Part shown: positions 7,281 to 58,584 of the stretch, one piece after another | How the letters are laid out: every line of letters begins with the position of its first letter | Numbering within the stretch: position 1 is the first letter of the stretch | From: Phoronis australis | Taxonomy: Eukaryota > Animalia > Phoronida | DNA: 64,000 nucleotides | Assembly (NCBI GenBank): GCA_002633005.1 | Contig: NMRA01000624.1 | Location: 173,109-237,108, forward strand | Direction: 5' to 3' | Notes under the pieces: model-generated | What the model saw: the letters and a program-made list of their open reading frames with translations, nothing else | The model's database searches: none | Told to the model about the DNA's origin: nothing | Position numbers and translations under genes: made by a program

Positions 7281-9350
7281 CCTTGCGATATTCATACAAG
7301 GTCATGATTCTTTGTCAAAGAGCTATGTCGTTGAATCAATCTAGATTTATAAGACAGTTGTAATCCAATAGAGAAATTTGGTTAATAGCGGATAAAACTT
7401 CGTCCGGGAAGGCTTTCCTTCGATTTAGCTAGATTAGAAGAAAGCGCTATTTCGCTAACTAAAGAACGGATATGCCTTCGTCTGAGACTGAGAACTCTTT
7501 CCTTTGATCTATCTAGATTAGGAGATATTGCTACTTCAGTTTTATCTATAGATATTTCGACTGATTACGTCCACTTTGACCCGATGCCTTCATTTTTACT
7601 TGTTAAGTCCATTTTAACTCATGCAATTAATTTTCCCCCTTTTGTCATTCTTGAACCATTTTTCAATATAACATGTATTTTGAGAGGTGTTCCGCTATTA
7701 ATCGACCGTGTGCCCCAATAAAAAAAGTTTTGTTTCAATCATTCTGTTTGACTACAGCAATTACCTCGACAGGATGCAGTATGCAATAGGCACTTGCTCT
7801 ACTTTCTGTGTACATTTCTGCATTACGTTAAAGTCGTGGACAGGTGACAGATGTAAAAACACACTGCAGCATTAGCAGGGGTTTGGTATGATTACTCGGT
7901 TATTGAATAAAATTTCTGAAATGTTAAGTTACAACTAGAGAATTGTTACTGCATATCGTTGTCAACCTTTGTGCGTTATGCGGAATTCACGAGACGGCTT
8001 GACATCATGAAATGAATATCAGTCGGCATGATCTGTTGAAAGCGTCTTGTACAAGTACATGTAAATGTACATGTGCAACATTCTGCTGCTGCAATACACT
8101 ACGACATGTATATCCGTGGCAAACGAGGTAAACATGTCCACGTTACATACATTTATGTTAACAAGACATTGCATTTACATTGTTTAAAGCTTTTGCATAT
8201 AGTTTCCGGAAGAACATCCAGTAAGCACCAGCTGCAATTGAATATCTGGTACATATTCTCGTTTCAGCTGCCACAATAACCGGGAAAAGTACATGTATGT
8301 ATTTTTGTGGGTTTAATCTTATTGTTATCAACTTCATAATGTCCTACACTTGTTTCCTTGCATAGGAGTAAGTTGGTTAATTACTAAGCTATACTTTCGA
8401 ATAGTATTTTGCTGTGCCATCAAATTTTTATTAATTCCTTGGCAGTTTGTACACAGCGTGCTCGGAGACTTGATTTCGCTGTCACTTAAAACAAAGCAAT
8501 ACATGTTTTCACACCTAAAGCATATCTCTGAAATTATATTTTTATGTTGTGTGCATTAACATATAAACAGATTCCAAACCTTCGTCGTTGGTGTCGTCCT
8601 TTCCATCGATTATTAAATGTCTTCTGTCTAGATTCAAAGGTCTTCCATTTTGATGTCTATCATTACATGCCAATCATTGAGTGTGTTCATTATAAAATAT
8701 TGTATCTGTTATCGGTAAAAATGTGTCATCAATTACCAAAGACACGTCAATAATCAAACGTCAAATTATGATCTCAAACGGAGACAGTTAACGAAAGATT
8801 GGATGAAAATAGATATCAAGTAAACGTCTGAATACCAATTGAATTGCATAAGCATACTGAATATTAACGTTTATCTAAATATCGTAATACATGTATGTCC
8901 ATTTGAACCATTATTTCCAGTTTGGTGGTGGGATCCATTTTCACCCATTATGTCCCTTATAACGGTAGCAACAATAATAATAATTACATCAAACTCACAC
9001 AATTTTGATTAAAATCCATATCCAAACAATGAAAAATCAACCACGGAATTCTTCATACATATAAGTGATGGAACTTCTCAAGTAGTTTTTTCAAGACTTA
9101 AGTGAATGTGGTGCTAAGGGGATCTCGAGGCTATTTTAAGTTTGTGACAAATTTCCAATGATTTAAGGTTATTTTACTCTGAGGTGACGCTAAGGAGGCT
9201 TCGAGTAAGTGGATTTATGTGTATAGTGAATGAGATGCTACGATCAGATGACCTCGGGCAAGTTGCCACGGGGTCCAAAATGTATGACTGGGAGCGAACT
9301 CTAATTCAATGACTTTTTGGATGTACTGATCAACTGATTACGTTTTACAG

Positions 9351-9485
9351 CACCTCGACCGTGTGTAAATAAAGTCGCCACACATGTATGTGCTACTTTC
9401 GTACACTGGAAACTCTGCAATTACTTTAAAAGTTGGGCAAGTGACCACTGCGAAGCTTACTGCGGTTTTTGCGTAGGACCTATAG
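9351..9485 (+). CDS. ShK-domain exon 1: PRPCVNKVATHVCATFVHWKLCNYFKSWASDHCEAYCGFCVGPI
   Basis: ttttacag acceptor, gtaagt donor, 135 nt, phase 1-1, six Cys with terminal CxxxCxxC. Confidence 0.88.
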
Positions 9486-18400: not shown

Positions 18401-21400
18401 AATCCCCTTTTTGTTGCTGTGTTTACTTCTTTGACAACATCGCTGACCTTGTGCACGCGCGGCATCATTCAATAGATGGGGCATTCAGCCTCGTCTCCAG
18501 CCTCAACATGGTGCTGATCAGTTAAAGTATTTGAGGATTGGTAATGGGAAATGAAATGTGTCAGAATTTTTACAGAAATTGCCGGAATGGCACACGTAAT
18601 TTCAAAAATTTCTGCAGTTTTCAAAATAAAACTAATGGTATATTGTAGCAATTTAGATCCAAATTATTGCAAAAATGATGTATTTTGATTCAAAAACAGG
18701 TTAATACTATTCATAAATAAGAATTGAAAAAAGCGCAACCTTTATATTCAGACAATAAGTAAAACAATGCCTTCTGTCTCACGAATGGCTGCAATGTGAA
18801 AATAATTACCATCTGACCTTGTTCAATGACGTCAAGGCATCGGTCAATCGTGCAGAAAGTAATTCCCATAACCAAGCCTCAAATGGCTAAACCCATAAGC
18901 GTTGAAAAGGTCACATCAGTGTCACAATTGTGTGTAAACACAGTGCAAAACCATCAATTGATGCTCATAAGACTTTTTGTAACACATTGTGAAGTATTTT
19001 TTAGGAATTTCAAAATGGTAACAAAATAGAAATTTTTGGAAGAAATGGAATGAATATAAAGTCGCTATTCTTCTGAAAATATTTATTACAAGAAACTGAA
19101 GTCCTACAACCAGCTCTAATACTTGTGTTAGGAAAGGATGAAACATTTATATCTTGCAGATTATACATTTCAAATAAGTTTCATGTTGGAATGGTATGCA
19201 GTGTCTAGGTAATTCTTATTATGCATAACTTATCTGGAAAATGTATAGTTGAGTCTTTGAGTTTGTACTCTAAGCTACTAAGCAGGGTTTGTTTTATTTC
19301 AGGGATTGTGATCAAGGTGCACAGTAATACTAATGCAAGCTTTATAGTAAAAGAGGCACCATGCTCCGAAACGCTGGAGACAGGGAGGGAGGGCGAAGAC
19401 TGTTTGAAGCTGCCAGTCCACTAATAAGCCTGGGACAGTTTTGTAAAAAATAATTACCGGTAGTTGCTTAGTTGTCATTTATATAATTCATAATTTTTTG
19501 TAAGTATTTTACCTGAGCAGTTTCACAGTAACAAATGTATTAAAGAACAAGAGTCTTTCCTTCATGTAAGTCGCAGCTGCACATGCAATACCCACAAACA
19601 TTAATATTCCTGCATTCGGCCTGTAAAGGCACCACAAGTGGTTCAACATTGGCACTGTACTGGTCCACCACTGTACTTTCGTCTATGTAATTTGTGTACT
19701 GGCTTAATATGAGCCCATCAAAGGCCCTGTACTGTGCCAACACAGTCTGTCAATACTGGCCCTTTACAGGGCCGAAACCGGTTATTGGTGTACTGGCCCA
19801 GTAATGGCGTGGTACTGGTCCTTTACTGGCTCGATATCGCAATCTAGTACCGGGGCCAATACGTATTTTCACATTTTTATCATTTGCTTTGTGTTATATA
19901 CTTCTTTACAATATATCTCGTATAACATTGGAGTAACCATGCCAAATGACGTCGTACGGATGTCGCAATATATTGCTTAATTTACATGTATGAGATCTAT
20001 GCGACGGGCGTGAACGTGTTGAATGGTTATCGCTTATGGAACACTTTCATTGTTTTCCTATTTGTTCGACGTAACAATACAGGTTGCTTGGATATTGCAG
20101 ATTTGGCGCATGTCAACCCGTTACCCATTAATGCTTGCTGATATATTTATGAAAAGAAAGAAAAACAAAGTGAACAATGGAAACAGCTATCTATCGATAT
20201 CTATTCGACGCGCTTGCCATATAGTTTACCTTGGGTTTATGTTTTTTAGTTAACAGTTTGTTTTTAAACGGTATTTACTGAATAAATTACATACATATAA
20301 AGTTCCTCTCACTCTCCCAAACAGTAGTTTAAATCTACCATTCACTGTTCAAAGAGCAGACAAGATGATTACACTTTTTCGGGACCGACACTTGTAACGT
20401 TGGTACATGTAGCTCTTTGATTTGATGTGGTCGCTTTATGCTTTATGTTTTTGTTTCCAAACTTGCTGAAACGACTTTTTAAGTACATAAAAGCAGAGAA
20501 AATCCAGCTTAGCTCATGGTCCGAGTCTCTGGTCCTGCAACCTAGATGGAGTCGAGTTTGTATAGCCTGCGTCTACATGTTGTGGGGCGTGGGTCGAAGG
20601 GGTCGTGTACCGTGGGTCGATGGTCGAGACGGTTGTTGGTCGAGGGGGTTGCAGGGTGCGGGGGTCGAGTGGGTCAAAGGGGTTTCAGAATAAATGAGTT
20701 TTCGACTGGAAAACAGGTGGTGTCTGCTCTTCGTGGAATTACGTGGGATGACGGCGCTACACATTCAAAACTCCGCAAACCCATACGCTTACGATAAAGC
20801 AATGAACCTTCCCCAGCTGCTTTCTCACCCAGTGGTGACTATACATCGACGAAAAAAAGCCGAACTGTTCAGATGTAACCTGCCCAACCTCTAAAAATCC
20901 TCTAATGTCCCTCCTGATCTGGACATGGCTACCTCCATTCCTTTGCAGACGTCCTGTAATGCTGCCATATAATAATGAAGTGGCCAATCACAGGTACGAC
21001 ATATTGATAACCAGATTTCTCCACTGCACACAGTTTAAACCTTGCCGTCAAAAGATATCTGTAATCTTAGTTTCATACAGTCCAAATAACTACATGTCAT
21101 AACAATCACTAAAGTGAAAAAAAATGTTTAATAAATTGCGAGGTGGTATATTCCTTAATTCTCAAAAATTTCAATGTAATTTTCAAATGTCCTGTCAATC
21201 AAATGTATCGTGTCAAACTCTTCCATGCTCTTGATTCTATTGTTGGCGTCAACTCAATTTAGCACACCTTACCTAATAATCAATTTTCATTTTAGTCTTA
21301 TGGGTCGCATCAACTTAATTTGGATATGAGTATGTTTAATAGATATAATATCCACTTTAATTTATACTGTAACAGCAAATTCTATTTTAGCTACAATACT

Positions 21401-24400
21401 CAGTAATATTGTCTCTGTGTTGATTTGTGTTTTTTAATCAGGTTTTTATACCACAGGAATTGTGTTTTGTAATTTTAATATCTGTCAGTAGTCATCTTTT
21501 TAAAAAAACATGAATCTATAAATTTTGTTGTTGTTATTGTGATTGTTAATCTGCCTGTATTTAATGTTATAGATTTGCAGGCAGAAATTGCATCACGTTT
21601 TGTTTATGTATTTTTTTCAAATGAAATCATTAGACGTCTACCAAAAAAATGACGTCACACGAGCGTCACGAAACTGTGGCAGAGGTCGTTTTTCCGAAGA
21701 TGTACGTGCACATATTTTGGATAACTCTAACAGGTTAGTCTTTTATTATACAAATATATTCAGACTAATGTGACTTAACCGAATAAGAATCAACTCGCTG
21801 CAAAATCGGTCAAAAACTGCAACGCAACACAAAAATAATGCGCAAGTCCATGCAAAATTTGCGTGCAAACGGACGAACTGGTGTTATGCGAGTACGGTAA
21901 ATTCGAAACATTGTCGACATAGTGTTGGAAAATGGCTGCCAAAAATGTCAACCTTTGCAATTTGTATATGTGCACAGCAGGACAGGGACGTTTTGGTATT
22001 GGGTACAACAAAAGCATATCCGTAAGGTGTGTTGAAATTGTGTATCAGTGCTAGAATTACCAAAGGACAAATGCGTTTAAGTTCGGCTAAGGGTTTTGAC
22101 TATCGCTTACACCTGATTACACGGCGGTAAATAATTTCCACTAATAAGACAAGTAATAACTACTGAGTCGACTCCATCTGAAGATGTGATACACAATTTC
22201 AGTAAAATTGTCTGTGTTTGTCAAGTCATTCTTCTTCAAAAAACTTCAGACCTATTGGTGTTTTAAATAATTTATTTTTCAATGTGAAACAAATTCTGAT
22301 TAATTAAATATCAACTCTTTTATTCAAATACCATTTTCCAGTTTTCTGTCCCTAATAGCACAGTGCGAGAGCGCGTTTATAGACGTCGGGCAGGATACTA
22401 TTTATTAGGATGAGATGGTCAAAATTACATTGTACATGTAGGCTCGCATAAGCACTGGAGTATTGAAACACTAAATGTTCGTGTGAGAGTTGCCTCACTA
22501 GTTATTCTAATGCATTGATTAGTTCGTGTCGTGTTTCAGCCACGACCCCTCTTGTGACCCCGACTGAAGGTAGGTGTAAATCAGTCTATTCGCCATTTTG
22601 TGTAACCGAGTTGGTGCTGGTTGTTTATTTCTTCATAGAGAAATTCCTGAAAGAATTATTTCACTGCCAAAAGTTTATGTCTTATAGATAAGTAGAGCAC
22701 ACGCCGGGGCATTTTGTTACCAACTGGGTCATACATGTAAATTAACTTGTTGTAGTGTGTTTCACACGCACCTGTATTCAGCGTTGATCTTCAGTAGTTG
22801 CAGATGAGGCTTGGGCGCCAAGTCTTGTTGTTTGAAACTGTCTGATGGGGAACTGGAAGTGTCGTAACATTGAATAGATTGTGCAGAGCGTTCTCATCTA
22901 GGTTATATAAGTCCAGACTGACCAGTCCACAATCAATCTGTTCATTGGTTTTCCACACAGTCTTCAAACTGGTAAACTTATTCTGTATTGCCTAAAACGC
23001 CCTTAGAATCACAACATAACAAATCANAGGGGGTTGCAGGGTGCGGGGGTCGAGGGTGTCAAAGGGGTTTCAGAATAAATGAGTTTTCGACTGGAAAACA
23101 GGTGGTGTCTGCTCTTCGTGGAATTACGTGAGATGACGGCGCTACACATTCAAAACTCCGCAAACCCATACGCTTACGATAAAAGCAATGAACCTTCCCC
23201 AGCTGCTTTCTCACCCAGTGGTGACTATACATCGACGAAAAAAGGCCGAACTGTTCAGATGTAACCTGCCCAACCTCTAAAAATCCTCTAATGTCCCTCC
23301 TGATCTGGACATGGCTACCTCCATTCCTTTGCAGACGTCCTGTAATGCTGCCATATAATAATGAAGTGGCCAATCACAGGTACGACATATTGGTAACCAG
23401 ATTTCTCCACTGCACACAGTTTAAACCTTGCCGTCAAAAGATATCTGTAATCTTAGTTTCATACAGTCCAAATAACTACATGTCATAACAATCACTAAAG
23501 TGAAAAAAAAATGTTTAATAAATTGCGAGGTGGTATATTCCTTAATTCTCAAAAATTTCAATGTAATTTTCAAATGTCCTGTCAATCAGATGTATCGTGT
23601 CAAACTCTTCCATGCTCTTGATTCTATTGTTGGCGTCAACTCAATTTAGCACACCTTACCTAATAATCAATTTTCATTTTAGTCTCATGGGTCGCATCAA
23701 CTTAATTTGGATATGAGTATGTTTAATAGATATAATATCCACTTTAATTTATACTGTAACAGCAAATTCTATTTTAGCTACAATACTCAGTAATATTGTC
23801 TCTGTGTTGGTATGTGTTTTTTAATCAGGTTTTTATACCACAGGAATTGTGTTTTGTAATTTTAACATCTGTCAGTAGTCATCTTTTTAAAAAAACATAA
23901 ATCTATAAATTTTGTTGTTGTTATTGTGATTGTTAATCTGCCTGTATTTAATGTTATGGATTTGCAGGCAGAAATTGCATCACGTTTTGTTTATGTATTT
24001 TTTTCAAATGAAATCATTAGACGTCTACCAAAAAAATGACGTCACACGAGCGTCACGAAACTGTGGCAGAGGTCGTTTTTCCGAAGATGTACGTGCACAT
24101 ATTTTGGATAACTCTAACAGGTTAGTCTTTTATTATACAAATATATTCAGACTCATGTGACTTAACCGAATAAGAATCAACTCGCTGCAAAACCGGTCAA
24201 AAACTGCAACGCAACACAAAAATAATGCGCAAGCCCATGCAAAATTTGCGTGCAAACGGACGAACTGGTGTTATGCGAGTACGGTAAATTCGAAACATTG
24301 TCGACATAGTGTTGAAAAATGGCTGCCAAAAATGTCAACCTTTGCAATTTGTATATGTGCACAGCAGGACAGGGACGTTTTGGTATTGGGTACAACAAAG

Positions 24401-27400: not shown

Positions 27401-27712
27401 ACCGTTTGATTATTACTCAATATGAGTTCTAGATAGAAAGGTGCTGGCAATTAACAAAGGCATGTCTATGATCACACACCAAGCAAAGAATTCAAAGGGA
27501 AACAGTCAACGAAAATTCAAATCAAAACAAGTATCAATAAACGTATTCTCATCTAAGGCATAAATTCAGTGGACTGCACGATATTACAGTTTATTAATCG
27601 TCTATTCGGAGATTGTAATACGTCCAATTTGACTCACTATTTTCATTTTCATGACTATGTTCATTTTCAACATCTATGTTCATTATAACTGTATAAAAGC
27701 AATAAAGAGAGC

Positions 27713-27758
<46 letters not shown>

Positions 27759-45700: not shown

Positions 45701-48700
45701 CCGTTCCTCCCCGCGTTCGCTTGGTGAAATATTTTTTTCACTGAATGATGCCTGCATAATCACAATGCAACAGTTTGGCCCTTTTCTAATATGAAAGGGC
45801 TGCAACTCCACTCATTAAGCTGCGTTTGTTCTGACCCAACATTGCCTTTTTGACCAATTAGTTCCAGTTTGATCAAGTCATCCACTTTCACCCATTATTC
45901 TCATTATAATCAACATAATAATAATGCCACGACCTCAGAGTAATAATCGTAATAACCACAACAGATTCAACAAAAATGGCATTAAAGGAGATTGCCACCC
46001 GATTTAGTTAGCCTTTTTACCGTCTTAATCGTTCCACATCGCCTCTTATACGGTCGACCTCATCTTGCCGAGAGGTGTCGTCTTAACCTGTGATACAGGT
46101 CTCAAACGACGAAGCGACGTCAGTGGTTCGTCTGCAGAGTGAATGCCGCTATATTGCGGTGCATCGTTCCCGCTTGTCCGAAGTATGAAGCTGCGAAGGA
46201 AGCTTGTATATCGTTTTTTCGACTTCCTGGAGAGCCCGAAATGCTTAGAAATAAACTCGCGGTAGTGAAGAATGAAAGGTATGCTCTGAATAGCAAGTAT
46301 GAGGACGTGAAACATCTCCATGTCTGCAGCCGGTATTTCGTCGACAGTGATTTCTCTGACGAATTCCGGCCTACCAATTAACATTCCATACATGTACGTT
46401 CCGTTGCCTGTGCATGTACATGGCGCCTCTCCAGTATTCCTTGATCAGTGTATTCGGGTTCGAACTGATAGCCTGTGAAACCTAACGATCAGACCCGTGA
46501 AGTCTCCGTCGCCTGAGCTCTTGACAAAGTCTGTCTCATTAAATACAATTTGTAATTGGAGTGTTCGTGAGTGCAAATGTTTTGAGAAGCCAGCAGTGAA
46601 TGTAAACCACTAGTTAACGGCTTTTGATGCCGGCAACAAAGTAAGGTAATGACCGGGCACCGAGGCGATGTGAGCGCATGCTACTTCAGTGGTTGCTGAC
46701 AGAAAGCTGTTGTGAAACAATTACTCAATTTTATATGCTATGGTTTCATGTGAGCGGAATCTTTATTTAGAAATACAAATACATTATTCAAATCATACTG
46801 TACAACATTTGCCCTGACGGTCTGTGGAACGGGAACCCGACATCGCGGCCTCCGAAAAGTAAGAATATTTTCAGTTTCGTGGCTAATTCACTTAAATAAT
46901 TACGTGCACATTATTTCTTTTGCTCACTATTATACACTGTAATCTTTTCGTGACTAGAGGTTTAGTTTCCAACTCAAGCTGGTTTATGTTCATGTCAGTC
47001 CCGGCGGCCGCTACGGGCCTGATCGGGCTCCGAGCCACTGGCCGGGATAACCAGCGTTTTGTGTGTTTAGAATTCCATAAAATGCAAGTATAGCAACACA
47101 GATCTAGTTTCCCCTGTCTGTATTTCACGGAAGAATACTTCGAGTTTATCTTCGAACAGACCCAAACTCTTCAGTGCTACGGACCTTGGTAAATTGGCCT
47201 GCCAAACTTTGTAGGCTACAAAGTGTCGAAATACCAGTAAATCCGTAACAGCGAAATAAAACAACACGTTTTTATAAGAACTCGGTCTATTTTTAAGGGT
47301 TTTACATTGAAGTTTTATGATTTATTGGTGTTAAACGATGAATTCAAGCGATAAGCTGACACCAGTAACCCTTGTTGTGAAATGCTGAACAGACTGCATG
47401 TGAAACCAATTACGTCATTGGATAATTTCAACACTTCCGTCTGCCGTCAGGTGACAGGTAGCGCAACCGAGCGTGCCGTTGTCGAGCAGAACTACTCGAT
47501 CTAAATTGATACAAAATAGGTTGTTTTTTGGGTGGCTCTCTCCTCTAACATTGCCATACACAATGGCAGGTACAATACTAAATTCATGCTGTTAATAAGT
47601 AATTGGTGTTTCCAACACATCAGAGATCATGTGGTGCTACTGTTGAGCTCCAGGACGCCTTGAGTTGCGATGACTTTTCAATGAAATTAAGGTAACCTTA
47701 CACTGAGGTGATACTAAAGTGGCTTCGAGTTAACGGATTTTTGGTATTGTGAATAAAATGCGGGTAAGGTAACTTGAACTGAAATAAGTTACATTCGAGT
47801 TAGTCCCCATGAACCCACAATCTAATCACTCGAAGGCAATAAATAGCTGCTGTAGGCTTTTCTCTACCATCGCTTTCACTTACTTGGACGTGTGCTTGCG
47901 GCATTAAAATAGTTTTATTTTGAATTAACCATAACTTGAATGGGTAACGAGCAAATGATGACGTTTCATAGGATCGCGACCGTGTGTGGACTTAAAAGAC
48001 AACTGTGATGCTTACCCAGATGATATGTGCACCAATCACTTGTATAAAGGTTTTGCGAGAACCAATTGCGAAGCTTTCTGCGGCTTTTGTATAGGGCCGT
48101 CGACAACGACGGGTAAGTATGAGGCGAAAACCTGGGCTCTGAATGGAAAAAGAAATTGAACTAGGTTTAAAGACAACTTGCGTTTCAGGGCCACACTGCC
48201 TCAACATGTCCAATTATACCCGATATGTCCATTTAACTTGCATGTACTGTATTCTGCCCATGTTCACTAATGAGGAGATTGTTGTGCAATCGTCTCGTCT
48301 GCTCTTCAGTGAATTGCAAAGTGCGAGGAAACCACAGTTATTTCACCAGAAAAAATAAACTGTCAACTAAAAAGTATTTCAATGTTGTACAGTATGGATA
48401 TTATTGTAAAGGAGTATACAATAAAAAGCAAGTAATAAAAATATGAAATTATGTACATTCACGTTAACGTTCTCTCTTCCCAAGTGCTATTCAAGACCAT
48501 CGGCATTCTCACGCCACTTTCTGTTTTCAATCACCAGACTTCAGCCAGGGCAGACTCGCCTGTAGGTTTGTCTTATGGGAAAGTCGCCCAGCGACGTAAT
48601 AAGATTATGAAATATGTAAAAAGCGCACAGACACCTCTATTGCCACAGGTCGTGGGTCAAGGGTTTCGTGGGTCGTGGGTAGAGGGGGTGGAGGGGTGTG

Positions 48701-51700
48701 GGGGTCGAAGGGGTTTCAGTACAATCCCGAATGAGGCACATTCTAAACCATGAAATTTTAGCCCGTTATGTCGACTTCAAACCTGTGATTAAGGATAAGG
48801 TATATTTCGCACGTTTAAAGCGGCTGTGTGTTTGAATAGTACAAATGTTTTGTTTAGTAATTCTACGTCATCATAGCACAATCAATTAGTGTATTTTTCA
48901 TTGCATAGACAGTGTTTAAATGCAATACGATGATAAATTAATCAGCAGTTTTAATTAACTGAGGACATGTTTTTGTTCCAGAATTCACACCTCCAAAAAG
49001 AAGTAAGTATCTCGATTCACTCTTACTTTATTACAACATAAATCTTCTATTGTTTCATTGCACGTGAATAAACAGGATTATACCTTCTAGGAATTTTTCG
49101 TCGCACTCAGCATGTCACAATTCCCATCCGACTGATACGATGAATACACAAACCACTTTTGCTGTGCGTATTTCTTTAACGTCGTTGTCTCACTAAAATC
49201 CGTCGCAAATTGACACGGTGGCACTTAGTTTTTGTACTGTATGTTTTCACCTTAATGAGTCGGCTGTTTATGACCTATCTTGCCCATTTTGAACCACTAT
49301 TATTGTTTTCATCCATCATTTCCAATTACTCCAGGGAAATCCATTTTAACCCGTTAAGTAGTGGCCCATGAGAGGACCAGCCAACCACCGACAAAGTGGA
49401 AATCAGCCGATTTGCACCAAAGTTGTCGCATAGGTAGTCTTTACGGAGATTCAGTGGTAAAAATACTTTTTAAAATACCTGTGTCCCAACGGAGATATAT
49501 GTTATAGCTATGTTGAACCAGTCTTTTCACACCCAAAATCTGTGGATTTTGAACTTTCTATTTGTTCCTCGGAGGAAAAATTAAATATTTATTTAATTTT
49601 GTTTAGTAATGCTGGTGGATATAGTGTCGTGAAAGAAAACAATGGTTTGTCACCAATAGTAATTTCAGCACACTACCCACAAGGCCGTTTCGTACCTACC
49701 GTATGTTATTTATATTACTACAGTGAGGATTATGAAACTTGCCATAAATACTGCCAAAGGAGGAGAGATTTATCATATAAAAAACTTTCACTCAACAGCC
49801 AGTCCTCGATTTTTTGCAAGAAATTGTTTTGGGACTTCTTCTTTCTGATGGCCGTGCACCTTTCAAATCATCGATGACCCCCTTGCTCCCAACGTATCAG
49901 ATACGGTGCATGGCTCTTTTTGCACAAAACATAGATTATGCTTACCCTAATGGAAGCGTTAATACTAAATTTCTCAAATTGTATCAGCTACAGAATCAGA
50001 CACAGTATCAGATACAGCATCAGACACGGTATCGGATACACCATCTGATACAGTACCAGATGCAGTGTCGGATGCAGTATTAGTACGTATCATATACAAT
50101 GTATCTGTACTAAAAAGCTATTATGCGTACCCTAATGGAAGCGGCAAAACTTAATTGTTGTCCAATCCTTTGTATAGCTGACACCTGTTGTTGCATTCGA
50201 CAGATATTGTCTCGCATTCGACATAACCAACAGCAACCATAAGTTTGGCGTAAATGGATGGAACATTTGAACCCCTGACAAAATATCTCCGATAGATCAG
50301 CTCCGGTTACTGTAATTCTACAATTGTTGTAATCATAAATAATTTAAGGTTTTACAATTCGGCTTTCATCAAAGGCGAATCCATAAAGGATCATGTTCTC
50401 ATGTTTTTAATATGCTGCTGTCCCACATAATAGATTACGCATACCCTAATAATAACGAATTAGTAACATACTGAATTCCAAGGTATAGCGAGTCACTTAA
50501 CAACTAACATAAAATCATATGCCTAATCAGTAACTGAAATACTGAAAGAAAAATCTTACCTGCTCATACAAAAAATGCTAACGCCAACATACATGTACAT
50601 GTATTTATACAAAAGATTTCGATTAGGACTGACTACCAACTACAGTATAGCCGGATAAACTACAAGTGTACTAACTCTATTTCTGCGTAAGTTTATTTCT
50701 ATTAAATAAAAAACGTGAGAATTAGTAGGCAATAGAATTGGCTGCGTTAAACAGTAATTATATTTGTACAGCCTCCACCATGACGTTTAGTTCACATAAC
50801 CTTAGCGCAGTCCTATGTTTAGTGTTGAGGCAGAAACAAACTCGATTGAGAGGCTGCGTGTGAACTCTTCGGAGCACAGTTCCCATTGGGCGGGGCTTTT
50901 TCGAATACGACCATTTCCTCTTATCTTGTATTCGTTGCTAATTGGGATGATTCACAGGAGGCTCTTAAATTTCATATTCATCAATCTTTCTGTGCGAAAT
51001 ATTCTTGAATGCAAAAACACCTTCGTAAAGTTAACGCTGTCATTCGGGTTCTATTTTGAACGAATGACCTTTGTCTTGTTCAAAGTCTATTAACAATTGT
51101 GGACCGAGATATTTTGCCATAGCGTGATTGTCGACTATTAAGTCTACTGTAACTCAAAATATCCACTTTCGAAGACGGGATCTTCATTCCATTTACCATA
51201 TCAGTCAACACGTCCAGTAGAGGGTCAGCCTCAGGCGAAATGACCGACACACTGGGTGATTTTTCATATTGGCGCTCTCTAGATTACCGAGAGCACGAAA
51301 ATGACTTCCGATTGATTCAGGTTTGGTGGACAGGAATTCGATTACTACATAGGGGTTCATAAATATAGATACAGATGAAAAGATTCCAATGTGAGTCATA
51401 ATCATTGCTTGATGAGTTGAAGTACACTGATTCATTTTAACTTGTTTGGCACCGGCTGGGATCTCCCGCTTTATTAGCTGCAGCCACTGACTTTGTAGCG
51501 GATACATTTTTGCAGCACGTAATTTTCCAGCACTGTAATAGAGGAAAAGGGGTTATGAGCGAACTATGTACGAGGTTGAAACCTTTCGTCCGCATTACAC
51601 AAGTTATGTAGGTGGTGCTGACCATCTGTCCAACAAAGACCTGATCGCCGTCTGCCCAATCGTTGAATTTCAAAATATCGCAGTTATATCGAAAGTCAGA

Positions 51701-54700
51701 TATCGAATGCATAAATCATAGATCTGCTGGTGGGTTGGACTCTACCACTTCAATTTGACGTCCCAGTCTCGAAAAACCAAAGTAAACGTCCCGTTTCTGT
51801 GTACCGCTGGCGTATATCGCTTTGTTTGCGCTGTTCAGCCTACAGCTGTTTTCTTCGACTTTTACCTGCACTGCTTTTAGTCTTTCGCATTTTTCACAGG
51901 AGTGCAGAAAACCTGTCACTATTGTTCGGCGCATGCCTGTATATGTAACACAATCTAAAGAGTTGGCATTTGCTTTGCAAAAAAATAATAATACATTAGC
52001 ATTCAACTAGAGATACTTCGTCAGGAATCTGCCAGGCACTGCCAATGTTGTACTTTAAAGTGTCGCAACAAAGGGTGCTTCTTTGTCGAATTTTGCCGGC
52101 CGTCTAATGTGACGTTATTGCCCGCGTGGGTCATTAAGTAATTACGAATACATTGTGCAGTACTATTGTTGTAGCAAGTTCAAAACCCTTCATGGTGGAA
52201 CACTTCTGAAGATTTTGTCAGAAGTTAGCCAAAATTGTAAGGGATTTTAGGAGACATGAAATATATATATATATATATATATATATATTGCATCGCGTTT
52301 TTGTGCGCAGAAACTTTGTCTACTATCCCATTCGTCAATACACGAAGTAACTTTGGATCTTCTTGATTCTACACTATAACACAGGATATCTGCACAGCAA
52401 ACAGTATCTCTAAATAATTTGGGCTAATCGGGGGGCATTAAGCGGATGATTTTATTGTGTGTATGCTCCATTTTGTCTTTTTTCAAATACAGCTGCAGTA
52501 CCTCTTCCTCAGAGACCGGCTGGCGATTGCAAGGACAAATTCAAATACCACTTTTCCGGCAAACATTCAGCTTGCTTTGCAAGATCTTCGAAACACAAAG
52601 CCATCACAGGTAAATTTTGAACTGAGAATAGTCTGTTGGTCACTTTCACAATGGCTTAAGTGCCGTATTCATCCACACTGCACTGTGTTGGACACCTGTT
52701 CCATTCCACCTAAACCTAATATTAATGCCATGACCCAAACTGCTGGACATTTTTCATCCTTTGTTAATGGTGTTTGTCAAATTGGTCAACCTTTGTTATC
52801 CTAAGCTAATGACGTTTCATCAAACTGATCGACATTTATCACCATAAGCTTTGACGTTTTGCTAAATTGGTCGACGTTTGTCATCCTAAGCTAATGACTT
52901 TTCGTCAAACTGATCAACGTTTGTCAACCTAGGCTAATTGCTTTTCGTCAATTGATAGATATTGGTCATGCTATGCTAATGACATTTCGCCAACTTGATC
53001 GACCTTTTTCATCATATGCTAATGTTTTTTCGTTGCTTGATAGCAAGCTGCAAAGTCAGTGGACCAGTATTTTCCTTTTTAGAACTGCGAGTTAGCGATC
53101 CTAGATATACTGTATATATATACATGTACATGTATATACAAGAACACCGAGTACCAAATGGAAATTTTCGTTGATTTTATACAAGCAGAACGTTCACCGG
53201 TGTTCAATAGGTCTCATCCACTTTAAAACAGTCACAAGCCTGCTTCCTCCGCTGCTCGAACTGTAGACTAAACATATAAGCTCGCCCCCTTTTCATGAAA
53301 TACCTATTAGCTTCGTCACCCACCACATGCTGTTTGCAATAAACCCTGGTCATGCAACTTCTACGGGAAGACAGAAACATTTCCACCCATTCGCTGCACT
53401 TTCCTGCAATAGCTCTTCATTCTCAAGTAGTTTCCTCTCGTAATCATCCTGCACCTTAAGTCTCCCACTGAACAGTTAACTCAATTAGGATCAGTACCTA
53501 CTTGCTTTCTTACAACACTATGTCTTGTCTCAACTGGGTGACAGTTACAACAACATGGGCGGCGCAGCACTGAGAAAATAGGGGCTAAAGCAACCCCCCA
53601 TCCCCGTATGGTACGTCCCCCATGGACAATGAGTGAGGAACAAGATGAATTCCATTTATTACAAGACGTTGTCTTAATCAAACATTTTTTGACATAGTGG
53701 CACAAGTTCATTTGCCAATGGTATGTTTACATTTGCTGTACTTGATGTTTAGCTGTGTAAATGTAGAAACAGTTCCTGGAGTTTTGACACTCTTTGCTAA
53801 AAAAGTTCTTTTTCATGTTTTTTTTTTCATTTCTCAGGAGTCAGCGATAAAAACAAGAAACTTATAGTATCTCTGCACAACAAAGTACGTTCCGAAGTGT
53901 CCGATGCCAAATTCATGCTGAAAATGGTGAGAAGAACCGGTAGAAAATTTGAAACCTGTGCGCTTGTGCTTTGAAGCAATTGCATGCACGCATAAAATAC
54001 ACATGTACACTGTACGTCTACATGTACACTGACGTCACTGTTTCACGGTATATTTATATTTGCCTTTAAACTTCACTTGAAATCTAAATTATGAGTAATA
54101 TATTCATTGTTACGGTTTCAATGTTAATTTTACATGTATGGAGCACTGAATGTACTAAATTGGTAGTCCAAGCTGAAGTCATGAGAGCTCTAAAGTGCCT
54201 TCTCCTTACCCTAAAACTGGATGTTATGTCAAAGTATCAAAGAGCAATCGCTCTACTTAATCGCAAGAATGTGTCTATTCTAAAGCAATTGCTTAAAAAA
54301 AACTATTCTTGTGTGCCCAGTTGTATTATATATAATTTAATCGCGAAAACTCAGGGAGGTCACTTTAAATGTACCGTAATAAGCTTGTGTACTTCTATAT
54401 AGAGATGGGACGATGAAGTAGCTATGGTGGCACAACGATGGGCGGAAGTATGTAAATTTGCTCATGACAGCGATCGGTCGATACCAGGTAAATCTTTATT
54501 CAACAAAATAATTAGAAAGTTAAATATAGTTTGCCCAGAAAGCGATTCATGTATACATGCATCTATTAGGTAGATTCATTGTGTCCAGGTAGTGTGTTCA
54601 CCGGTACGATTGAATGCTTGAAACTTAATTCCACATACTGCGCTACGTTTACTTTCATTGTTTTGCTTATGTTTCGTGATTCTCTGGCATTGTTCTTTGA

Positions 54701-57700
54701 CACGGCAGATTGGATTGAGCTATAACACTGGCCGAGATGGCGTTCATTGACTACTTGTTTGAAGGGGAAGTCCCAGAGGTCCAACATTGGGCTTTTTACG
54801 TTTGATTGAATAATTATACGGTCGATTAATTTTGAAGCTTTTGGACGGGCTGCACGCGATTTCCAAACAGCGCGTTTAAGAACCGTACCTTCAACTGTCA
54901 AAATACGAACATATCTGGTTATAAATAAGGCGATTTCCGTTAACGTGCTGTGTAGGTTTCACGCAAATGGCTTTGGATTTTGTTTTAAAAGAAAATACGA
55001 TTTTTTACATGACGCTAGATTGGAAGTCCCGGATGTTGATGGATGACTGCTAGGAGTTACCCAATTTCTGTCTTGATAAATGAGTTGCGCCTACAGTATA
55101 CAGTGGCTCAGTAAACATGTGGGATGTCAAATTTATCCACAAAGACGTTTTCATACATAACGCATTGTTGGGACTTTTTATGTTTTAGGTCGCTTCTATG
55201 TTGGCCAAAACATTGCATATTACTCGGTGCGTAGTACCAATTGGCCATTTATAATAAAACTCTGGGCAGACGAGAAACAGTATTATACGCACGGCGATAA
55301 GTGGAATGAAACATTTGGACATTACACACAGGTCAGTCTATTGAACATCCACCGTGCACCTTCCCTACGCTAAACGTCCAATTAAATACATGTACATGTA
55401 ACACACACGCATAACAGCAGTTGGAAAACGCATCTTGCATTTGCTGTTCTTTTGTCTTGCACCACATACATGTATGTACATGTAGTTGCAGCTAAACCCC
55501 ACGCGGCGTCTGATTAACGACGGTTCGCTTTCGCACAGGACCCTTTCGTATTAGTAAAAGTCTATGGTTTAGCCACCGGTCTGTTTATGGTATCGGAATA
55601 GTAAGCTAAAAAGTAAGCGCCGCTGATCCCTACAAGTTTCATTTCCTTAAGACTTGTTATATCAGATACTCTAGTGGGGTGATATAAAAAGGTTGGTAAA
55701 GCAACGACACATCAATTACAACTATGGAGGACTGCGGTTTCAAAATTAAGACAAGTTCAAATCCAACCTGTACTAAATTAAACCAATTTAAACGTTAATA
55801 TGCTGTTTTGTCCGGTAATTAGACTCAAACGTATAAGGGTGGTCTCGGATTAACGTGCGACACTCGAATACCCCTGTCTTTGCCCACAACGTGGTAATAT
55901 CCGTAGAGCACTCCGCTCGTGTTCGCACAATTGAGCTCCACGAGTTCTTTATCTTTGTCGTATTCTTTACGAGTTTTTTCTCGGTTACGTTACTCTATTC
56001 GTCCTTTCAATGCCAACGAAGTATCACTGATGTGCTCAGAAATGACACTCTGGCCGGAGAAAGTTGAATAAACTTAGATACCGTGGACGGGTTAATTTCT
56101 TTGCTTTCCCGTCTTCAATTAACGAAAAGCAAATGCGGAGCAAATTCATCGGGCTCATTTGGAATCGAAATAATCCGCTTCCTTGAAAACTCTTTCCATT
56201 TTCCGGTACTTTTAAAAATGTTGAAATCGAAAATATTCCCGCTGCAATAAATTTCGACGGTTTCCGACATAACCTCAATGTAAAAATGTGCCTGACGTTT
56301 AAAACGAGGCGGTTGATTACTCCCCCCCCCCGGGCAAAAGAGACTTCTATTGCTGTGGAAGCCGGGTTGTCCCTATTACAATAATATGGAATCGTGTTAT
56401 TAATTTCGAGGAAGATAGACACATCTAGTACTCTCAAGTTTAGATTAAATATCCACGATTGTTGTGAATGTAAATTATTTACAATTATGTGAAATGATAT
56501 TATCAGGAAAACTGCATTTCACATGAAACATATTTTGAGCTACGGAAAATTTTCATTTGCATATGAACACTGTGGTCTCTTTTTAGTCCTCTTGAAATGC
56601 GTGCACACATGTAGTTGGAATAGTTAAATTACCACTTTCTTCTAAATGTCACCGTATCTAGAATTTTTACTGAAAATTTGTACCAAAAGGCACCAAAGAT
56701 CCAATTAATTCATAGAATTTCATAGTTTTGGATAAATGCCTTACTAAACTCATCACAGCAACTCTACAGGGTTTATATTATAAAACTTCCGTTGCCTTGA
56801 TAGTGTACAAATCTTTCGTGAAACATTGAAAATATTCGTCTGCTGGTTTAATTTGATGTTACTATTATATTCTTTTCATTTCGCATTTTGCAACATTATT
56901 GTTTTTAGAAATAAAAAATATATTTAAAACCTATCGAGTATGCAAAATGATAAGTATATATGATTTAAATTATTTATGGTTTGCTTCTGCTATTATCAAT
57001 CAAATCAAGAAATGATGAAGGGTTTCCTTATCATGTGACTCTTATGCAATTCAGTTGAAAAACGGTGGAGTTGTGAAAAGTTTTAGTAATAGTTTTAACT
57101 ATAAAAAATCCAAAAGAATAGCCAAAACCGAGCACTCGATTGCATACAAATGTCACGCATGCGTTTGGGCAACCTCTACAGCGTGAGATCGAAGCTGGTA
57201 TTCCAGAGCTGGAGTTCTGTGCTATTGCATTACCAAGATTCAAACACTTACTAAAACAATTCGTCAACGGGTAACATGAACAGAAGATTAACACAGAAAA
57301 TTGACTTTTTATCGCCTTCTGTAGGGTATTACTTTTTGCGAGGAATTCATTTTCAGACACCTTGAAATTTAAAAAATCGTAAATTGTGGTACACGGTATA
57401 CCAGTTTATTTTAGTCAGTGTTAAGCTGTAGCAATCGTGGCAATCCCTCTACTCCGCACAACATGGATTACATTATAGACTATATTTCTTGGTAAGAGGG
57501 CCTGTTGACGATAGCAGGATCTACAGTACTACAACCTTATTGACGTCAGCTAAGAGGTGCCCTGAAACGGACTCAATTTGTATTAGCACTCGAAGATTTT
57601 TACATTGCAGATGGTGACTGCTGGGACCTATTTGATAGGATGTGGCGAAGCCATCTGCGAAGGCATTGGCCATTACTATGTGTGTAACTATGCACCCGGG

Positions 57701-58584
57701 TAAGTCACTTCGTTTCTACCGAATTATAGGCACATGTTTGTTACTCAGAAGAGCAGCTTCAGTGTTACAGTTCAAAGAAGTTATTGTAAGAAGGCACTAA
57801 TCACGATTTGCTATGATTGACAGCGCTCATTAAAAATGACAAGGACCTCTCCCTTTCTTCAAATGGAAACTAGGACTTGAACTTCACAAGGCAGCCAACG
57901 GTTGCCAGGTTGGGACAAAGACAACCTTTTAGAAAATGACACATTAAAAGCTTGACTCTGACTTTTTGATTAAACAATGGCGGGGGTAACAAGTTTTGGG
58001 TGCACTACACCTTCAGAGACTTTATGTAAAGAATCCAGCAAATACGTGGGTAAAATTGGAATAGAATTGTTAAACTGCCAAAACCATCATGTGAACAAAT
58101 AGTTACCAGTTATTAACCGCTGTTGGCAAAGGCAGGCAATGTCCCTTGCCGTTAACTCCGATGGCATCGAACTTGAGTGTTCCAGTGTCTTTAAATCGAC
58201 ATGACTCTTTACTTCATAGTTAACCTACGCTCTTCACTTTGAATCAAGACCGAATTAAGAGTTCCCAATGAAACTTCGGCAACACCGAAGCTTCGGAGCC
58301 AGTGGGAAAGTCCTTATTTTTACGGCTTCCGTTGGAGAAGAATATACTGTCAAATGTGTAGCTTGTTGGCGTAAATTGGCAAATACCATGTCAAGATGGT
58401 GAGGATGTGACACACTGTTTGCGGGAGTGTGTATGAATTTGCGTTGTAAGACCAAAATTCATTTGTTTTGATACAATGTAAGTAGTCGTGCTTGTCGATT
58501 GTAGAGGAATGTCTAGATATCCTTACCCTAAAGGAATTCTGGGAACTGCTTGCCCGGCCTTCATCGACAACAACAACCTATGCG
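9351..58584 (+). CDS. Multi-exon gene (incomplete at both ends): 7 tandem ShK-like domains + CAP/SCP (CRISP-like) domain + partial hinge. Exons 9351-9485, 25860-26000, 28062-28202, 29900-30037, 36810-36950, 41751-41894, 47972-48112, 52493-52609, 53838-53926, 54403-54487, 55189-55331, 57611-57699, 58505-58584
   Basis: Every exon has canonical AG/GT ends and the phases chain correctly; the spliced 1584 nt is open. It carries ShK C..C..C..CEAYCGFC motifs and CAP motifs LHNKVR, GQNIA, GHYTQ and VCNYAPG. Joining the ShK and CAP exons into one transcript is inferred from phase compatibility. Confidence 0.8.
10340..12355 (+). mobile_element. Non-LTR retrotransposon fragment (I/Jockey-group-like): ORF1 zinc knuckles + ORF2 AP endonuclease, truncated before RT
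   Basis: CNHCGNNHKSLEC and CANCGGPHPANRRSC knuckles at about 10525-10632; ORF 10931 has NLNG, ETWL, RRDR..GGGV, SIYNP and GDFNSKH; ends at SSPRND, the usual SPGxD position before RT. Confidence 0.88.
12356..13006. mobile_element. 651-bp near-perfect palindromic (foldback/MITE) element
   Basis: Arms 12356-12668 and 12695-13006 are reverse complements with a 26-nt loop; termini CATAAC...GTTATG. Confidence 0.9.
13655..13730. repeat. (TAGA)n microsatellite, imperfect
   Basis: Directly visible. Confidence 0.9.
15386..15537. mobile_element. Short hAT-like MITE
   Basis: Terminal inverted GGCGTATCTAG ... CTCGATCCGCC, with G-rich and C-rich halves. Confidence 0.5.
15622..19870. mobile_element. Non-autonomous CACTA/EnSpm-like (CCCAG-terminus) element with nested insertions
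   Basis: Left CCCAGTAAACA...GTATTGGCCCAGTACTGG; right GTACCGGGGCCAATAC with many TACTGGCCC-like subterminal motifs; right end degenerate. Confidence 0.45.
16639..17397. mobile_element. MITE with about 160-bp terminal inverted repeats
   Basis: TGGTAATTGTTTACAATATGAC...CCCGGT (16639-16802) is inverted at 17240-17397. Confidence 0.75.
20643..25413. repeat. About 2.39-kb tandem duplication (20643-23026 / 23028-25413) around a single N, probably an assembly artefact
   Basis: Near-identical copies abut exactly at the N at 23027 and differ by scattered SNPs and small indels. Confidence 0.9.
25860..26000 (+). CDS. ShK-domain exon 2: SRPCLDKLEDCSSHGDVDTLCTKYKGWSIVNCEAYCGFCKRPSTTT
   Basis: ttttacag acceptor, in-frame gtactg donor, 141 nt, phase 1-1. 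Confidence 0.85.
27713..27758. repeat. (AAT)n microsatellite
   Basis: Directly visible. Confidence 0.95.
28062..28202 (+). CDS. ShK-domain exon 3: PKPCVDKVENCGSYGHVSTLCTRYRSWASVNCEAYCGFCIGRSTAT
   Basis: ttttacag acceptor, gtgagt donor, 141 nt, phase 1-1. Confidence 0.9.
28330..28830 (-). mobile_element. 3' fragment of an RNase H-containing LINE
   Basis: Minus strand reads TAIVTDSQSML and, after a frameshift, PGHARVVGNKRADKVA, the RNase H DS and PGH..GNE.AD motifs. Confidence 0.75.
29900..30037 (+). CDS. ShK-domain exon 4: ARPCLNKADNCASYGSVDTLCTRYKSWASENCEAYCGFCIGQSTT
   Basis: tttacag acceptor, gtaagt donor, 138 nt; lies within ORF 29887..30144. Confidence 0.9.
30655..31090. mobile_element. 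PIF/Harbinger-like MITE
   Basis: TIRs GCCGGGTTGCATGAAACAGTCCCAA / TTGGGACTATTTCATTCAACCGGC. Confidence 0.75.
36810..36950 (+). CDS. ShK-domain exon 5: PRPCVNKINNCASYGPASSLCLLYKSWASERCEAYCGFCVPPSTTT
   Basis: ttttgcag acceptor, gtgagg donor, 141 nt; overlaps ORF 36824..37024. Confidence 0.9.
38490..38830 (-). mobile_element. Penelope-like element 3' fragment (GIY-YIG endonuclease tail + pseudo-LTR)
   Basis: Minus strand reads DFAIIDHAITTKELKIREALHISWCKPNLNRQL, followed by a hammerhead core. Confidence 0.8.
38550..38594 (-). ncRNA. Minimal type I hammerhead ribozyme of a Penelope-like element
   Basis: Minus strand CTT-CTGATGA-T-GGTGT-(loop)-ACACC-GAAA-CATG-TT-AAG: intact core, 5-bp stem II, palindromic ACATGT stem III, 3-bp stem I. 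Confidence 0.75.
39065..39968. mobile_element. Small MITE (GG termini, 8-bp TSD TGTTTAGT; Merlin- or hAT-type) interrupted by a solo LTR
   Basis: TIRs GGCAATGGTCTGA.../...TCAGACTATTGCC; TSD at 39057-39064 and 39969-39976. Confidence 0.85.
39156..39944 (-). mobile_element. Solo LTR (789 bp)
   Basis: TGTCA...TGACA termini, 5-bp TSD GGCAC (39151-39155, 39945-39949); minus-strand TATAAATA at about 39600 and AATAAA at about 39257. Confidence 0.88.
41751..41894 (+). CDS. ShK-domain exon 6: PRPCVNKVDCASYGEVNTLCTEYRGWASDNCEAYCGFCVAPSTLPTK
   Basis: ttttacag acceptor, gtaagt donor, 144 nt, phase 1-1. Confidence 0.9.
44567..47490. mobile_element. DNA transposon relic with two divergently oriented THAP-domain pseudogenes
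   Basis: + strand ORF 46139-46381 (CIVPAC..FFRLP..VCSRYF..SDF); - strand 45450-45710 (YTGCVPG..NSK..KKWI..KKTYLGNCLPIF). Boundaries approximate. Confidence 0.6.
46139..46381 (+). pseudogene. THAP zinc-finger domain remnant
   Basis: C..P.C, FFRLP and VCS.(H>Y)F...DF; the conserved Trp and His are lost. Confidence 0.75.
47972..48112 (+). CDS. ShK-domain exon 7 (divergent): SRPCVDLKDNCDAYPDDMCTNHLYKGFARTNCEAFCGFCIGPSTTT
   Basis: tttcatag acceptor, gtaagt donor, 141 nt, phase 1-1. Confidence 0.88.
49980..50082. repeat. 12-bp minisatellite (CAGATACAGTAT consensus), about 8 units
   Basis: Directly visible. Confidence 0.8.
52493..52609 (+). CDS. Pre-CAP exon: AVPLPQRPAGDCKDKFKYHFSGKHSACFARSSKHKAIT
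   Basis: Polypyrimidine tract + tacag, gtaaat donor, 117 nt, phase 1-1; C...HxAC resembles the N-terminal extension of invertebrate CAP proteins. Confidence 0.75.
52770..53030. repeat. About 43-bp degenerate tandem repeat (AAGCTAATGAC...AAACTGATCGAC)
   Basis: About six imperfect units. Confidence 0.75.
53838..53926 (+). CDS. CAP exon: VSDKNKKLIVSLHNKVRSEVSDAKFMLKM
   Basis: Long T tract + ctcag, gtgaga donor; HNxxR motif followed by A..MLKM. Confidence 0.9.
54403..54487 (+). CDS. CAP exon: RWDDEVAMVAQRWAEVCKFAHDSDRSIP
   Basis: tatag acceptor, gtaaat donor; WD.E.A..AQ.WA..C...H motif. Confidence 0.92.
55189..55331 (+). CDS. CAP exon: RFYVGQNIAYYSVRSTNWPFIIKLWADEKQYYTHGDKWNETFGHYTQ
   Basis: ttttag acceptor, gtcagt donor; GQN, W.DE and GHYTQ (CAP signature 1). 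Confidence 0.93.
57611..57699 (+). CDS. CAP exon: MVTAGTYLIGCGEAICEGIGHYYVCNYAPG
   Basis: ttgcag acceptor, gtaagt donor; IGCG and YYVCNYAPG (CAP signature 2). Confidence 0.93.
58505..58584 (+). CDS. CAP C-terminus/hinge exon: GMSRYPYPKGILGTACPAFIDNNNLC
   Basis: ttgtag acceptor, gtaagg donor, phase 2 in and phase 1 out; PY..G...CP.....NLC hinge pattern. Confidence 0.85.

Follow-up and report, generated by a model that had tools for sequence, protein, structure and literature searches.

The window, by which we mean the whole stretch of 64,000 nucleotides of Phoronis australis DNA that was analyzed, holds a real and expressed gene in which an array of ShK exons precedes a CAP domain. On balance we favor a reading in which one transcription unit splices tandem ShK exons, via a 21-nt micro-exon, in front of an oyster-type, probably type II CAP part, and the product is likely secreted and left uncut as a beads-on-a-string multivalent binder in mucus or the extracellular matrix. 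Coordinates are collected in Table 1.

In two of the three raw-read runs, stranded RNA reads span the splice joints from ShK6 to ShK7 and onward from ShK7 to the CAP exons, all on the plus strand; the array and CAP are therefore parts of one gene. This is the arrangement put forward in a preliminary description made from the sequence, and the separate ShK and CAP genes that it had named as the alternative did not materialize. The two sides of its direct 48112 to 52493 junction are indeed connected, but in two steps, the reads among the joints listed running from 48112 to 48982 and from 49002 to 52493 through the 21-nt micro-exon (each joint is listed individually, at a likeness of 90% and with a shorter side of 22-23 letters). 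Reads were compared over 41000-60300; in 1-41000 read support is limited to the letters joining ShK4 to 35220, where six reads in X1 match exactly a 37-letter stretch composed of the ShK4 end and the 35220-35246 micro-exon. Both micro-exons (35220-35246 and 48982-49002) had been missed in the preliminary description. Five AATAAA hexamers lie between ShK7 and CAP; a polyA site separating the two was considered and rejected, as the reads splice across.

Table 1. Features of the ShK-CAP locus, in window positions
Feature	Position	Strand	Evidence
Decayed ShK copy A	7758..7890 (approximate ends)	+	stops/frameshifts, about 3/6 Cys
Candidate 27-nt linker micro-exon upstream of ShK1	8268..8294	+	copy of 35220 micro-exon; weak donor; sequence only
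ShK1 exon, phase 1-1	9351..9485	+	Pfam ShK E 0.013; predicted exon
2386-bp direct duplication, 99.1%	20643..25413	.	around single N at 23027
Candidate 30-nt Thr/Pro linker micro-exon	22540..22569	+	sequence only; second copy 24927-24956 inside assembly duplication
ShK2 exon	25860..26000	+	Pfam ShK E 0.18
ShK3 exon	28062..28202	+	Pfam ShK E 1.4e-4, passes cut-off
ShK4 exon	29900..30037	+	Pfam ShK E 7.7e-4; 3' end spliced to 35220 in reads
Decayed ShK copy B, weakest of three	32925..33065 (approximate ends)	+	collinearity with copies A and C
27-nt Pro/Thr/Ser linker micro-exon after ShK4	35220..35246	+	reads
ShK5 exon	36810..36950	+	Pfam ShK E 0.0025
Decayed ShK copy C	40036..40175 (approximate ends)	+	nhmmer E 3.4e-5
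Linker micro-exon copy, GT donor lost	40549..40575	+	sequence
ShK6 exon	41751..41894	+	Pfam ShK match; ShK6-ShK7 joint in 18+14 reads
ShK7 exon	47972..48112	+	Pfam ShK E 1.5e-6, passes cut-off; read joints
21-nt micro-exon, array-to-CAP link, Lys-Arg end	48982..49002	+	joints in 10+20 and 12+12 reads
CAP exon 1: Pro-rich spacer and two-Cys N-terminal extension	52493..52609	+	exon check, reads, oyster alignment
CAP exon 2	53838..53926	+	exon check, reads, oyster alignment
CAP exon 3	54403..54487	+	exon check, reads; PDB 2vzn E 2.2e-5, 1qnx E 7.4e-5
CAP exon 4 (GQN ... GHYTQ)	55189..55331	+	exon check, reads, homologue matches
CAP exon 5	57611..57699	+	exon check, reads, PDB and oyster alignments
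Hinge exon, two Cys, phase-1 donor end	58505..58584	+	exon check, reads, oyster alignment

A renewed check of the sequence reproduced the 13-exon frame described earlier, with intact splice sites (AG/GT exon ends, GT..AG introns), compatible phases and 1584 nt giving 528 open codons with no stop; with the 21-nt and 27-nt micro-exons added, the frame reaches 544 codons if ShK1 is counted. Both gene ends are missing from the exon model. Two pattern scans over 1-52500 yielded weak candidates and no convincing signal-peptide exon; this exon may lie upstream of the window, and secretion is thus argued from the family. Because the donor at the end of the hinge exon is open, in phase 1, the gene continues, the CAP part probably extending beyond 58584. 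A scan of 58585-64000 found no exon to match it for EGF-like or ShK-like modules and no C-terminal module up to 64000; such modules may sit beyond the window.

All seven ShK exons cover positions 1-37 of the Pfam ShK model (PF01549), with E values from 1.5e-6 to 0.18, two of them passing the curated cut-off, and all carry the ShKT pattern of six Cys with a C-x3-C-x2-C ending over about 37 residues. In the ShK fold the six are paired C1-C6, C2-C4 and C3-C5. The 42 ShK cysteines that had been described as intact are all there in these seven exons, but three further ShK copies have decayed. Similarly, of the claim of at least seven ShK domains, the seven exons stand and may or may not be united in one transcript; ShK1 is doubtful as a member and may be part of another, partial copy. 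AlphaFold predicts three short helices for ShK1 at a mean pLDDT of 55.7 (low confidence), and a fold search with this model returned one uninformative row at Z 2.0; against PDB sequences, the ShK alignment had no matches at E 1 and ShK7 had chance matches only.

The repeats both arise and disappear, as the three decayed intronic copies indicate, of which copy B on its own fell short of the shuffled control (88 versus a maximum of 89 of 200). The ShK units are 60-84% alike, introns included, and the exons have diverged to a dS of about 0.6 with every Cys retained, all six Cys columns being invariant. Mean dN/dS over 21 ShK exon pairs is 0.50, and 0.62 at non-Cys sites, and in a neutral simulation six Cys and no stop were retained in 0.35% of trials per exon; the mean and the simulation use a star tree and are rough. 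Together the mean dN/dS and the simulation exclude chance retention of the array, and the purifying selection proposed earlier holds for the Cys scaffold.

By alignment, the CAP part is collinear with the oyster Tex31-like (type II) CAPs, unlike vertebrate CRISPs. All six CAP-side exons align in order to residues 23-213 of 359 in the oyster protein P0020, weakly for exon 2 and the hinge (scores 26 and 30), and exon 4 is 43-45% identical to its molluscan type II counterparts and has a tblastn E of 6e-10. A search whose query profile contained an oyster-like fragment gave 5 hits from 8 candidates; the nearest were four proteins of oysters, one of which bears the name Tex31-like. With the molluscan type II CAPs (the Conus Tex31/Mr30 clade, Cumia CreCAP-ShK type II and oyster P0018-P0021) the Phoronis protein shares a two-Cys N-terminal extension, RF..GQN, GHYTQ and a two-Cys hinge. 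The Cumia type II proteins likewise have a low-complexity spacer before CAP (PMC6409789, excerpt). Exon by exon, the scan with PF00188 reached at best 13.6 bits against a gathering score of 21.1, the exons being scanned singly. The CAP exons also match Ves v 5 (1qnx) consecutively and in order at 84-109, 112-164 and 165-196, exon 3 alone being individually significant. At the positions that we take to be those of the His-Glu-Glu-His tetrad, the residues here are His, Gln, Glu and His, the Gln being common to Ves v 5 and the oyster CAPs. Searching for homologues with only CAP exon 4 as query yielded no matches, a representative-sequence search gave three, two of them spurious, and Atlas look-ups with P0018 and P0012 led to clusters of CAP-only or ShK-without-CAP proteins, which serve as leads only.

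Vertebrate CRISPs, the comparator chosen in the preliminary description, have four Cys in the hinge and, C-terminal to it, one ShK-like domain. Vertebrate and snake-venom CRISPs do share the CAP core, with weak exon matches to natrin, pseudechetoxin and pseudecin chains, but the Phoronis hinge has two Cys, unlike that of a vertebrate-type CRISP, and the best PDB matches of CAP exon 3 are antigen-5 allergens, not CRISPs. The oyster type II CAPs with their two-Cys hinge replace CRISPs as the probable nearest relatives.

In type II CAPs, EGF-like and ShK-like modules follow the CAP domain and none precedes it, whereas in Phoronis at least ShK4-ShK7 stand in front. Because these relatives have further Cys-rich modules after the hinge, addition in front is more likely than the reversal of layout that had been suggested, although the array does precede CAP. 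CAP combined with ShK is common, with more than 600 proteins (PMC6409789, excerpt), and the molluscan type I, nemertean and Glycera proteins likewise combine CAP with one to four canonical ShK domains. Their order is the opposite of that in Phoronis: an excerpt of PMC4986456 has the nemertean ShK "always downstream" of CAP, one of PMC4202326 has CAP upstream of ShK in Glycera, and in Cumia ShK is C-terminal (PMC6409789, excerpt). No ShK-before-CAP protein appeared in the article texts covered by the literature searches or among the protein matches. In the salmon louse LsLGA, ShK is also N-terminal to a secreted effector, but the partner is astacin, not CAP (PMC10828956, excerpt). The ShK profile search returned 14 proteins (P0001-P0014) of multi-ShK, mucin-like, ADAMTS or VWA type, with lophotrochozoans among the hosts, and none of the 14 has CAP. 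Lophotrochozoan multi-ShK proteins and NEP3, U-GRTX-Esi4 and multiShKL likewise have ShK modules in tandem that match the Phoronis ones in sequence type and are joined by Ser/Thr/Pro linkers.

The best reading of these likenesses is a lineage-specific product of exon shuffling. A single ShK exon of phase 1-1, of the generic type seen in lophotrochozoan multi-ShK proteins, would have been inserted upstream of the CAP exons at a phase-1 position and then amplified by unequal crossing-over. The Ser/Thr/Pro linkers may be O-glycosylated spacers, the repeats could supply avidity for a putative cell-surface or microbial ligand, and CAP may serve as an anchor in lipid or membrane, a function for which we follow PMC6409789 (excerpt); the lone Lys-Arg between array and CAP may permit release of the whole chain in one piece. 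Mucin and ShKT modules are combined in Toxocara mucins (PMC5763927, excerpt), and an octocoral three-ShK protein without cleavage sites remains multidomain (PMC11896702, excerpt).

A multivalent toxin of defense or predation, with its array freed at the micro-exon Lys-Arg or kept attached, an ion channel as target and CAP as membrane anchor, is the best placed of the other explanations but unlikely. The Lys-Arg is placed exactly between array and CAP, expression in two of three runs suggests tissue restriction, and the non-Cys dN/dS would fit loose constraint or diversification. At the second position before the aromatic, 7/7 repeats have a basic residue, versus 4/17 comparable homologous domains; this also fits, but is not an independent count because the repeats share an ancestor. 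The repeats themselves are neutral to acidic (net charge -3 to +1), and at what is presumably the dyad-lysine place relative to the fourth Cys all seven have Ser or Gly before the conserved aromatic, so that the Lys-Tyr dyad is absent; together with the lack of cleavage sites between repeats, this argues against release as separate channel toxins. Moreover, joints are covered by just 9-20 reads among 11-13 million records, and the closest relatives are from non-venomous oysters. The dyad is a feature of sea-anemone type 1 K+ channel toxins, and channel activity is possible despite loss of its lysine (PMC6409789, excerpt). Vampire snail, bloodworm and nemertean CAP-ShK transcripts reportedly come from venom or toxin contexts, and the Cumia genes are specific to the salivary gland (PMC6409789, excerpt), which also speaks for a toxin.

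Somewhat less likely again, and speculative, is a first ShK(n)-CAP class in which up to seven non-canonical ShK modules on a type II CAP, released in one piece at the micro-exon Lys-Arg, would form a multivalent ion-channel ligand in defense or feeding, the CAP domain of the precursor being flanked on either side by ShK-like modules.

Repeat birth-and-death, as seen here, is typical of gamete-recognition proteins, and by analogy with mammalian CRISPs the product could be a reproductive protein of gamete coat or seminal fluid, which we regard as improbable. One of the three runs has no array or CAP reads save two at the last joint, which would fit, but mean dN/dS is below 1. CAP proteins do function in reproduction, but the oyster type II relatives are mantle-specific (both PMC6409789, excerpt).

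A recent chimeric duplicate heading to decay, or read-through from an ShK gene into a CAP gene, with a paralogue doing the work of the family, is quite improbable. The paralogous CAP transcript is the more abundant (34+20 versus 12+11 reads at the same joint), and this expressed close paralogue may contribute some joint reads; the conserved Trp after GHYTQ is replaced in the Phoronis CAP, and the locus harbors dead ShK copies as well as a dead micro-exon. The frame is nevertheless open throughout, the repeats have kept all Cys despite their divergence, and the similar read counts at the joints from ShK6 to the hinge exon are as expected for one constitutive mRNA. A NEP3-like polyprotein cut into single ShK peptides, suggested in the preliminary description, has one exon per module and a flexible linker each in its favor, and NEP3 precursors are processed (PMC11896702, excerpt), but it is the least credible reading, as the sole dibasic KR/RR site between repeats is Lys-Arg-Pro, a single Arg/Lys before the first Cys is likewise followed by Pro, and no two repeats of the array are thus separated by a usable dibasic site.

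With ShK following CAP elsewhere in the literature cited, the RNA-supported array in front means that the two modules came together a further time, independently and in the opposite order, and the locus preserves the joining process in its symmetric exons, duplicated units, linker micro-exons and dead copies. The single scaffold carries six or seven natural, related ShK variants that can be used to probe what non-toxin ShK domains bind, and micro-exons cause gene callers to miss or split proteins of this ShK(n)-CAP kind. The 2386-bp duplication between ShK1 and ShK2 is likely the overlap of two contigs.

The gene is real and expressed, and its unusual order of modules is drawn from two well-known promiscuous domains. 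Seven ShK and six CAP-side exons have AG/GT ends and fitting phases and add up to 1584 nt, or 528 codons, without a stop, which verifies the 13-exon open frame of the preliminary description. A six-frame scan of the window gives exactly seven intact ShK-like exons, all on the + strand and of phase 1-1, each with the six cysteines previously reported as intact; the Pfam ShK profile is matched over its full length in all seven and above its curated cut-off in two. The hinge exon carries a phase-1 donor at its 3′ end, from which the gene probably continues beyond the exons found; scans of 1-52500 found no convincing signal exon.

Three raw RNA runs bearing the same species label (X1, X2 and X3) were mapped to 41000-60300 at 90% likeness. 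Stranded joints in X1 and X2 lead from ShK6 to ShK7, through a 21-nt micro-exon (48982-49002) and on into CAP, and the ShK and CAP exons are therefore one transcription unit, in which the joints among ShK1-ShK4 and from ShK5 to ShK6 are predicted from the sequence. The single expressed gene proposed earlier is thus supported, with the amendment that reads pass through the micro-exon instead of joining 48112 directly to 52493. This micro-exon preserves the reading frame and has Lys-Arg at its end. Joints were listed one by one, with a short side of 22-23 letters since the micro-exon itself is that short. The joint 55331>57611 is not among the 15 rows listed out of 38, although both of its exons have stranded depth; X3 contributes only two reads, at 57699>58505. 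A further micro-exon lies at 35220-35246, where six X1 reads contain, exactly, 37 letters made up of the end of ShK4 and the micro-exon, from which the transcript would go on to ShK5 or ShK6. Intronic repeats at 42300-43600, 45500-48000 and 59700-60300 have heavy two-strand RNA coverage, which stems from copies elsewhere in the genome.

Splice joints from + strand RNA in two runs; counts may include reads from a paralogue
Joint	Exons joined	Strand	Reads, X1	Reads, X2
41894>47972	ShK6 to ShK7	+	18	14
48112>48982	ShK7 to micro-exon	+	10	20
49002>52493	micro-exon to CAP exon 1	+	12	12
52609>53838	CAP exons 1 to 2	+	13	11
53926>54403	CAP exons 2 to 3	+	9	12
54487>55189	CAP exons 3 to 4	+	12	11
57699>58505	CAP exon 5 to hinge	+	20	11

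Consecutive CAP exons correspond to successive stretches of Ves v 5. Among full proteins the nearest relatives are four oyster CAPs (five hits among eight candidates, a sample biased by an oyster-like fragment in the search profile), which displace the vertebrate CRISPs initially chosen as comparator; the oyster proteins and this gene share a two-Cys hinge. All six CAP-side exons are collinear with residues 23-213 of one of these oyster proteins (P0020, 359 residues), including its two-Cys N-terminal extension and two-Cys hinge. After the hinge the oyster proteins go on with further Cys-rich modules, and three of the four have a hydrophobic tail at the end. The Trp after GHYTQ is replaced in Phoronis australis; oyster type II genes show mantle-specific expression (PMC6409789). 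Over the last bases of CAP exon 3 (54460-54487), 34 + 20 reads carry nine differences in 26 letters, against 12 + 11 exact ones, a sign of an expressed, closely related paralogue or of a highly divergent allele. A degenerate tandem repeat of ∼85-bp period (52736-53043) lies in the intron between CAP exons 1 and 2.

The ShK profile matched 14 of 500 candidates, namely multi-ShK, mucin-like, ADAMTS and VWA proteins, none with a CAP domain. Published text describes over 600 CAP proteins with ShKT whose Cys-rich regions are C-terminal (PMC6409789), CAP always upstream of ShK in nemerteans (PMC4986456) and ShKT downstream of CAP in Glycera (PMC4202326); other layouts, none with ShK ahead of CAP in the portions concerned, appear in PMC5763927, PMC10893224, bioRxiv 2020.05.28.121442 and PMC10828956. 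No ShK-before-CAP protein was found in the literature searched, and the novelty of the order is probable.

Among the 21 ShK exon pairs mean dS is 0.59 and dN 0.29 (ratio 0.50, or 0.62 once Cys columns are removed), and in neutral simulation six cysteines and an open frame survive in 0.35% of trials per exon. The ShK scaffold is therefore under selection, as had been suggested, with loops fairly free to change. Three decayed copies (∼7.76, 32.93 and 40.04 kb; the second weak when taken alone) form their own clade (support 100/99), carry stops and frameshifts and, in rough alignments, keep two or three of six Cys codons; they are an internal control for the loss of cysteines without selection. 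The exons belong to units that were duplicated together with their introns, which retain 60-84% likeness, and the array would have begun with the insertion of a symmetric exon and grown by unequal crossing-over. The ShK6 linker end (41871-41894) differs from the 35220-35246 micro-exon at four of 20 positions, which hints that linker micro-exons may derive from ShK exon ends via an internal acceptor. A linker micro-exon copy at 40549 has lost its donor.

Seven ShK exons are intact, as described, and the odds that ShK1 belongs to the gene are about even. The 3.5 kb before ShK1 align collinearly with the ShK6 unit, as does 9936-10344, downstream, with the intron holding the functional 48982 micro-exon, whose copy here is degenerate; by collinearity ShK1 looks like a copy of an array's 3′ end. 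Transposons and an assembly join separate it from ShK2, 16 kb away, and it accounts for the two top dN/dS values (1.18 and 0.95). In favor of membership, its six cysteines and splice sites are kept, which neutral drift manages in only 2-13% of trials. The join (N at 23027) falls inside a 2386-bp duplication of 99.1% identity (20643-25413), likely the unremoved overlap of two contigs, that doubles a candidate Thr/Pro micro-exon (22540-22569), which may be the true upstream neighbor of ShK2. Just 3′ of ShK1, 10892-12239 contains pieces of LINE-like elements, in which an endonuclease domain is recognized (Pfam Exo_endo_phos, E 8.9e-7).

Beyond the observed architecture, expression and selection, we infer a role, and lean toward an uncut chain that would be secreted and glycosylated and would bind a surface ligand by avidity, with CAP as anchor, in mucus or matrix. 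The repeats have net charges of -3 to +1 and Ser/Thr/Pro linkers. Ser or Gly precedes the conserved aromatic, at the expected site of the Lys-Tyr dyad, and a basic residue two places ahead of the aromatic is kept in all seven. Dyad loss is still compatible with channel activity (PMC6409789), and a multivalent toxin set free by cleavage at the Lys-Arg of the 48982-49002 micro-exon is an unlikely reading. A reproductive protein seems improbable, and a decaying chimera, set beside the selected scaffold and the stranded joints, very improbable. Least credible is the polyprotein of single ShK peptides envisaged at first, as no usable dibasic site lies between the repeats; a three-ShK protein left uncut and a processed NEP3 are both described in PMC11896702.

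Elsewhere in the window, 1683-4000 is a GC-rich degenerate retroelement whose reverse-transcriptase-like ORF (2013-3119; Pfam RVT_thumb, E 0.0017) is followed by one that, without a Pfam match, resembles a tyrosine recombinase, an order suggesting a DIRS/Ngaro-type element. At 60371-61163, a ∼790-bp array of a 21-bp unit, its end part the reverse complement of its start, is flanked by similar sequences at ∼60315 and ∼61200; in the + frame it can be read as an ORF of GGNYF-type repeats, and the array is probably non-coding, a repeat carried within a transposon.
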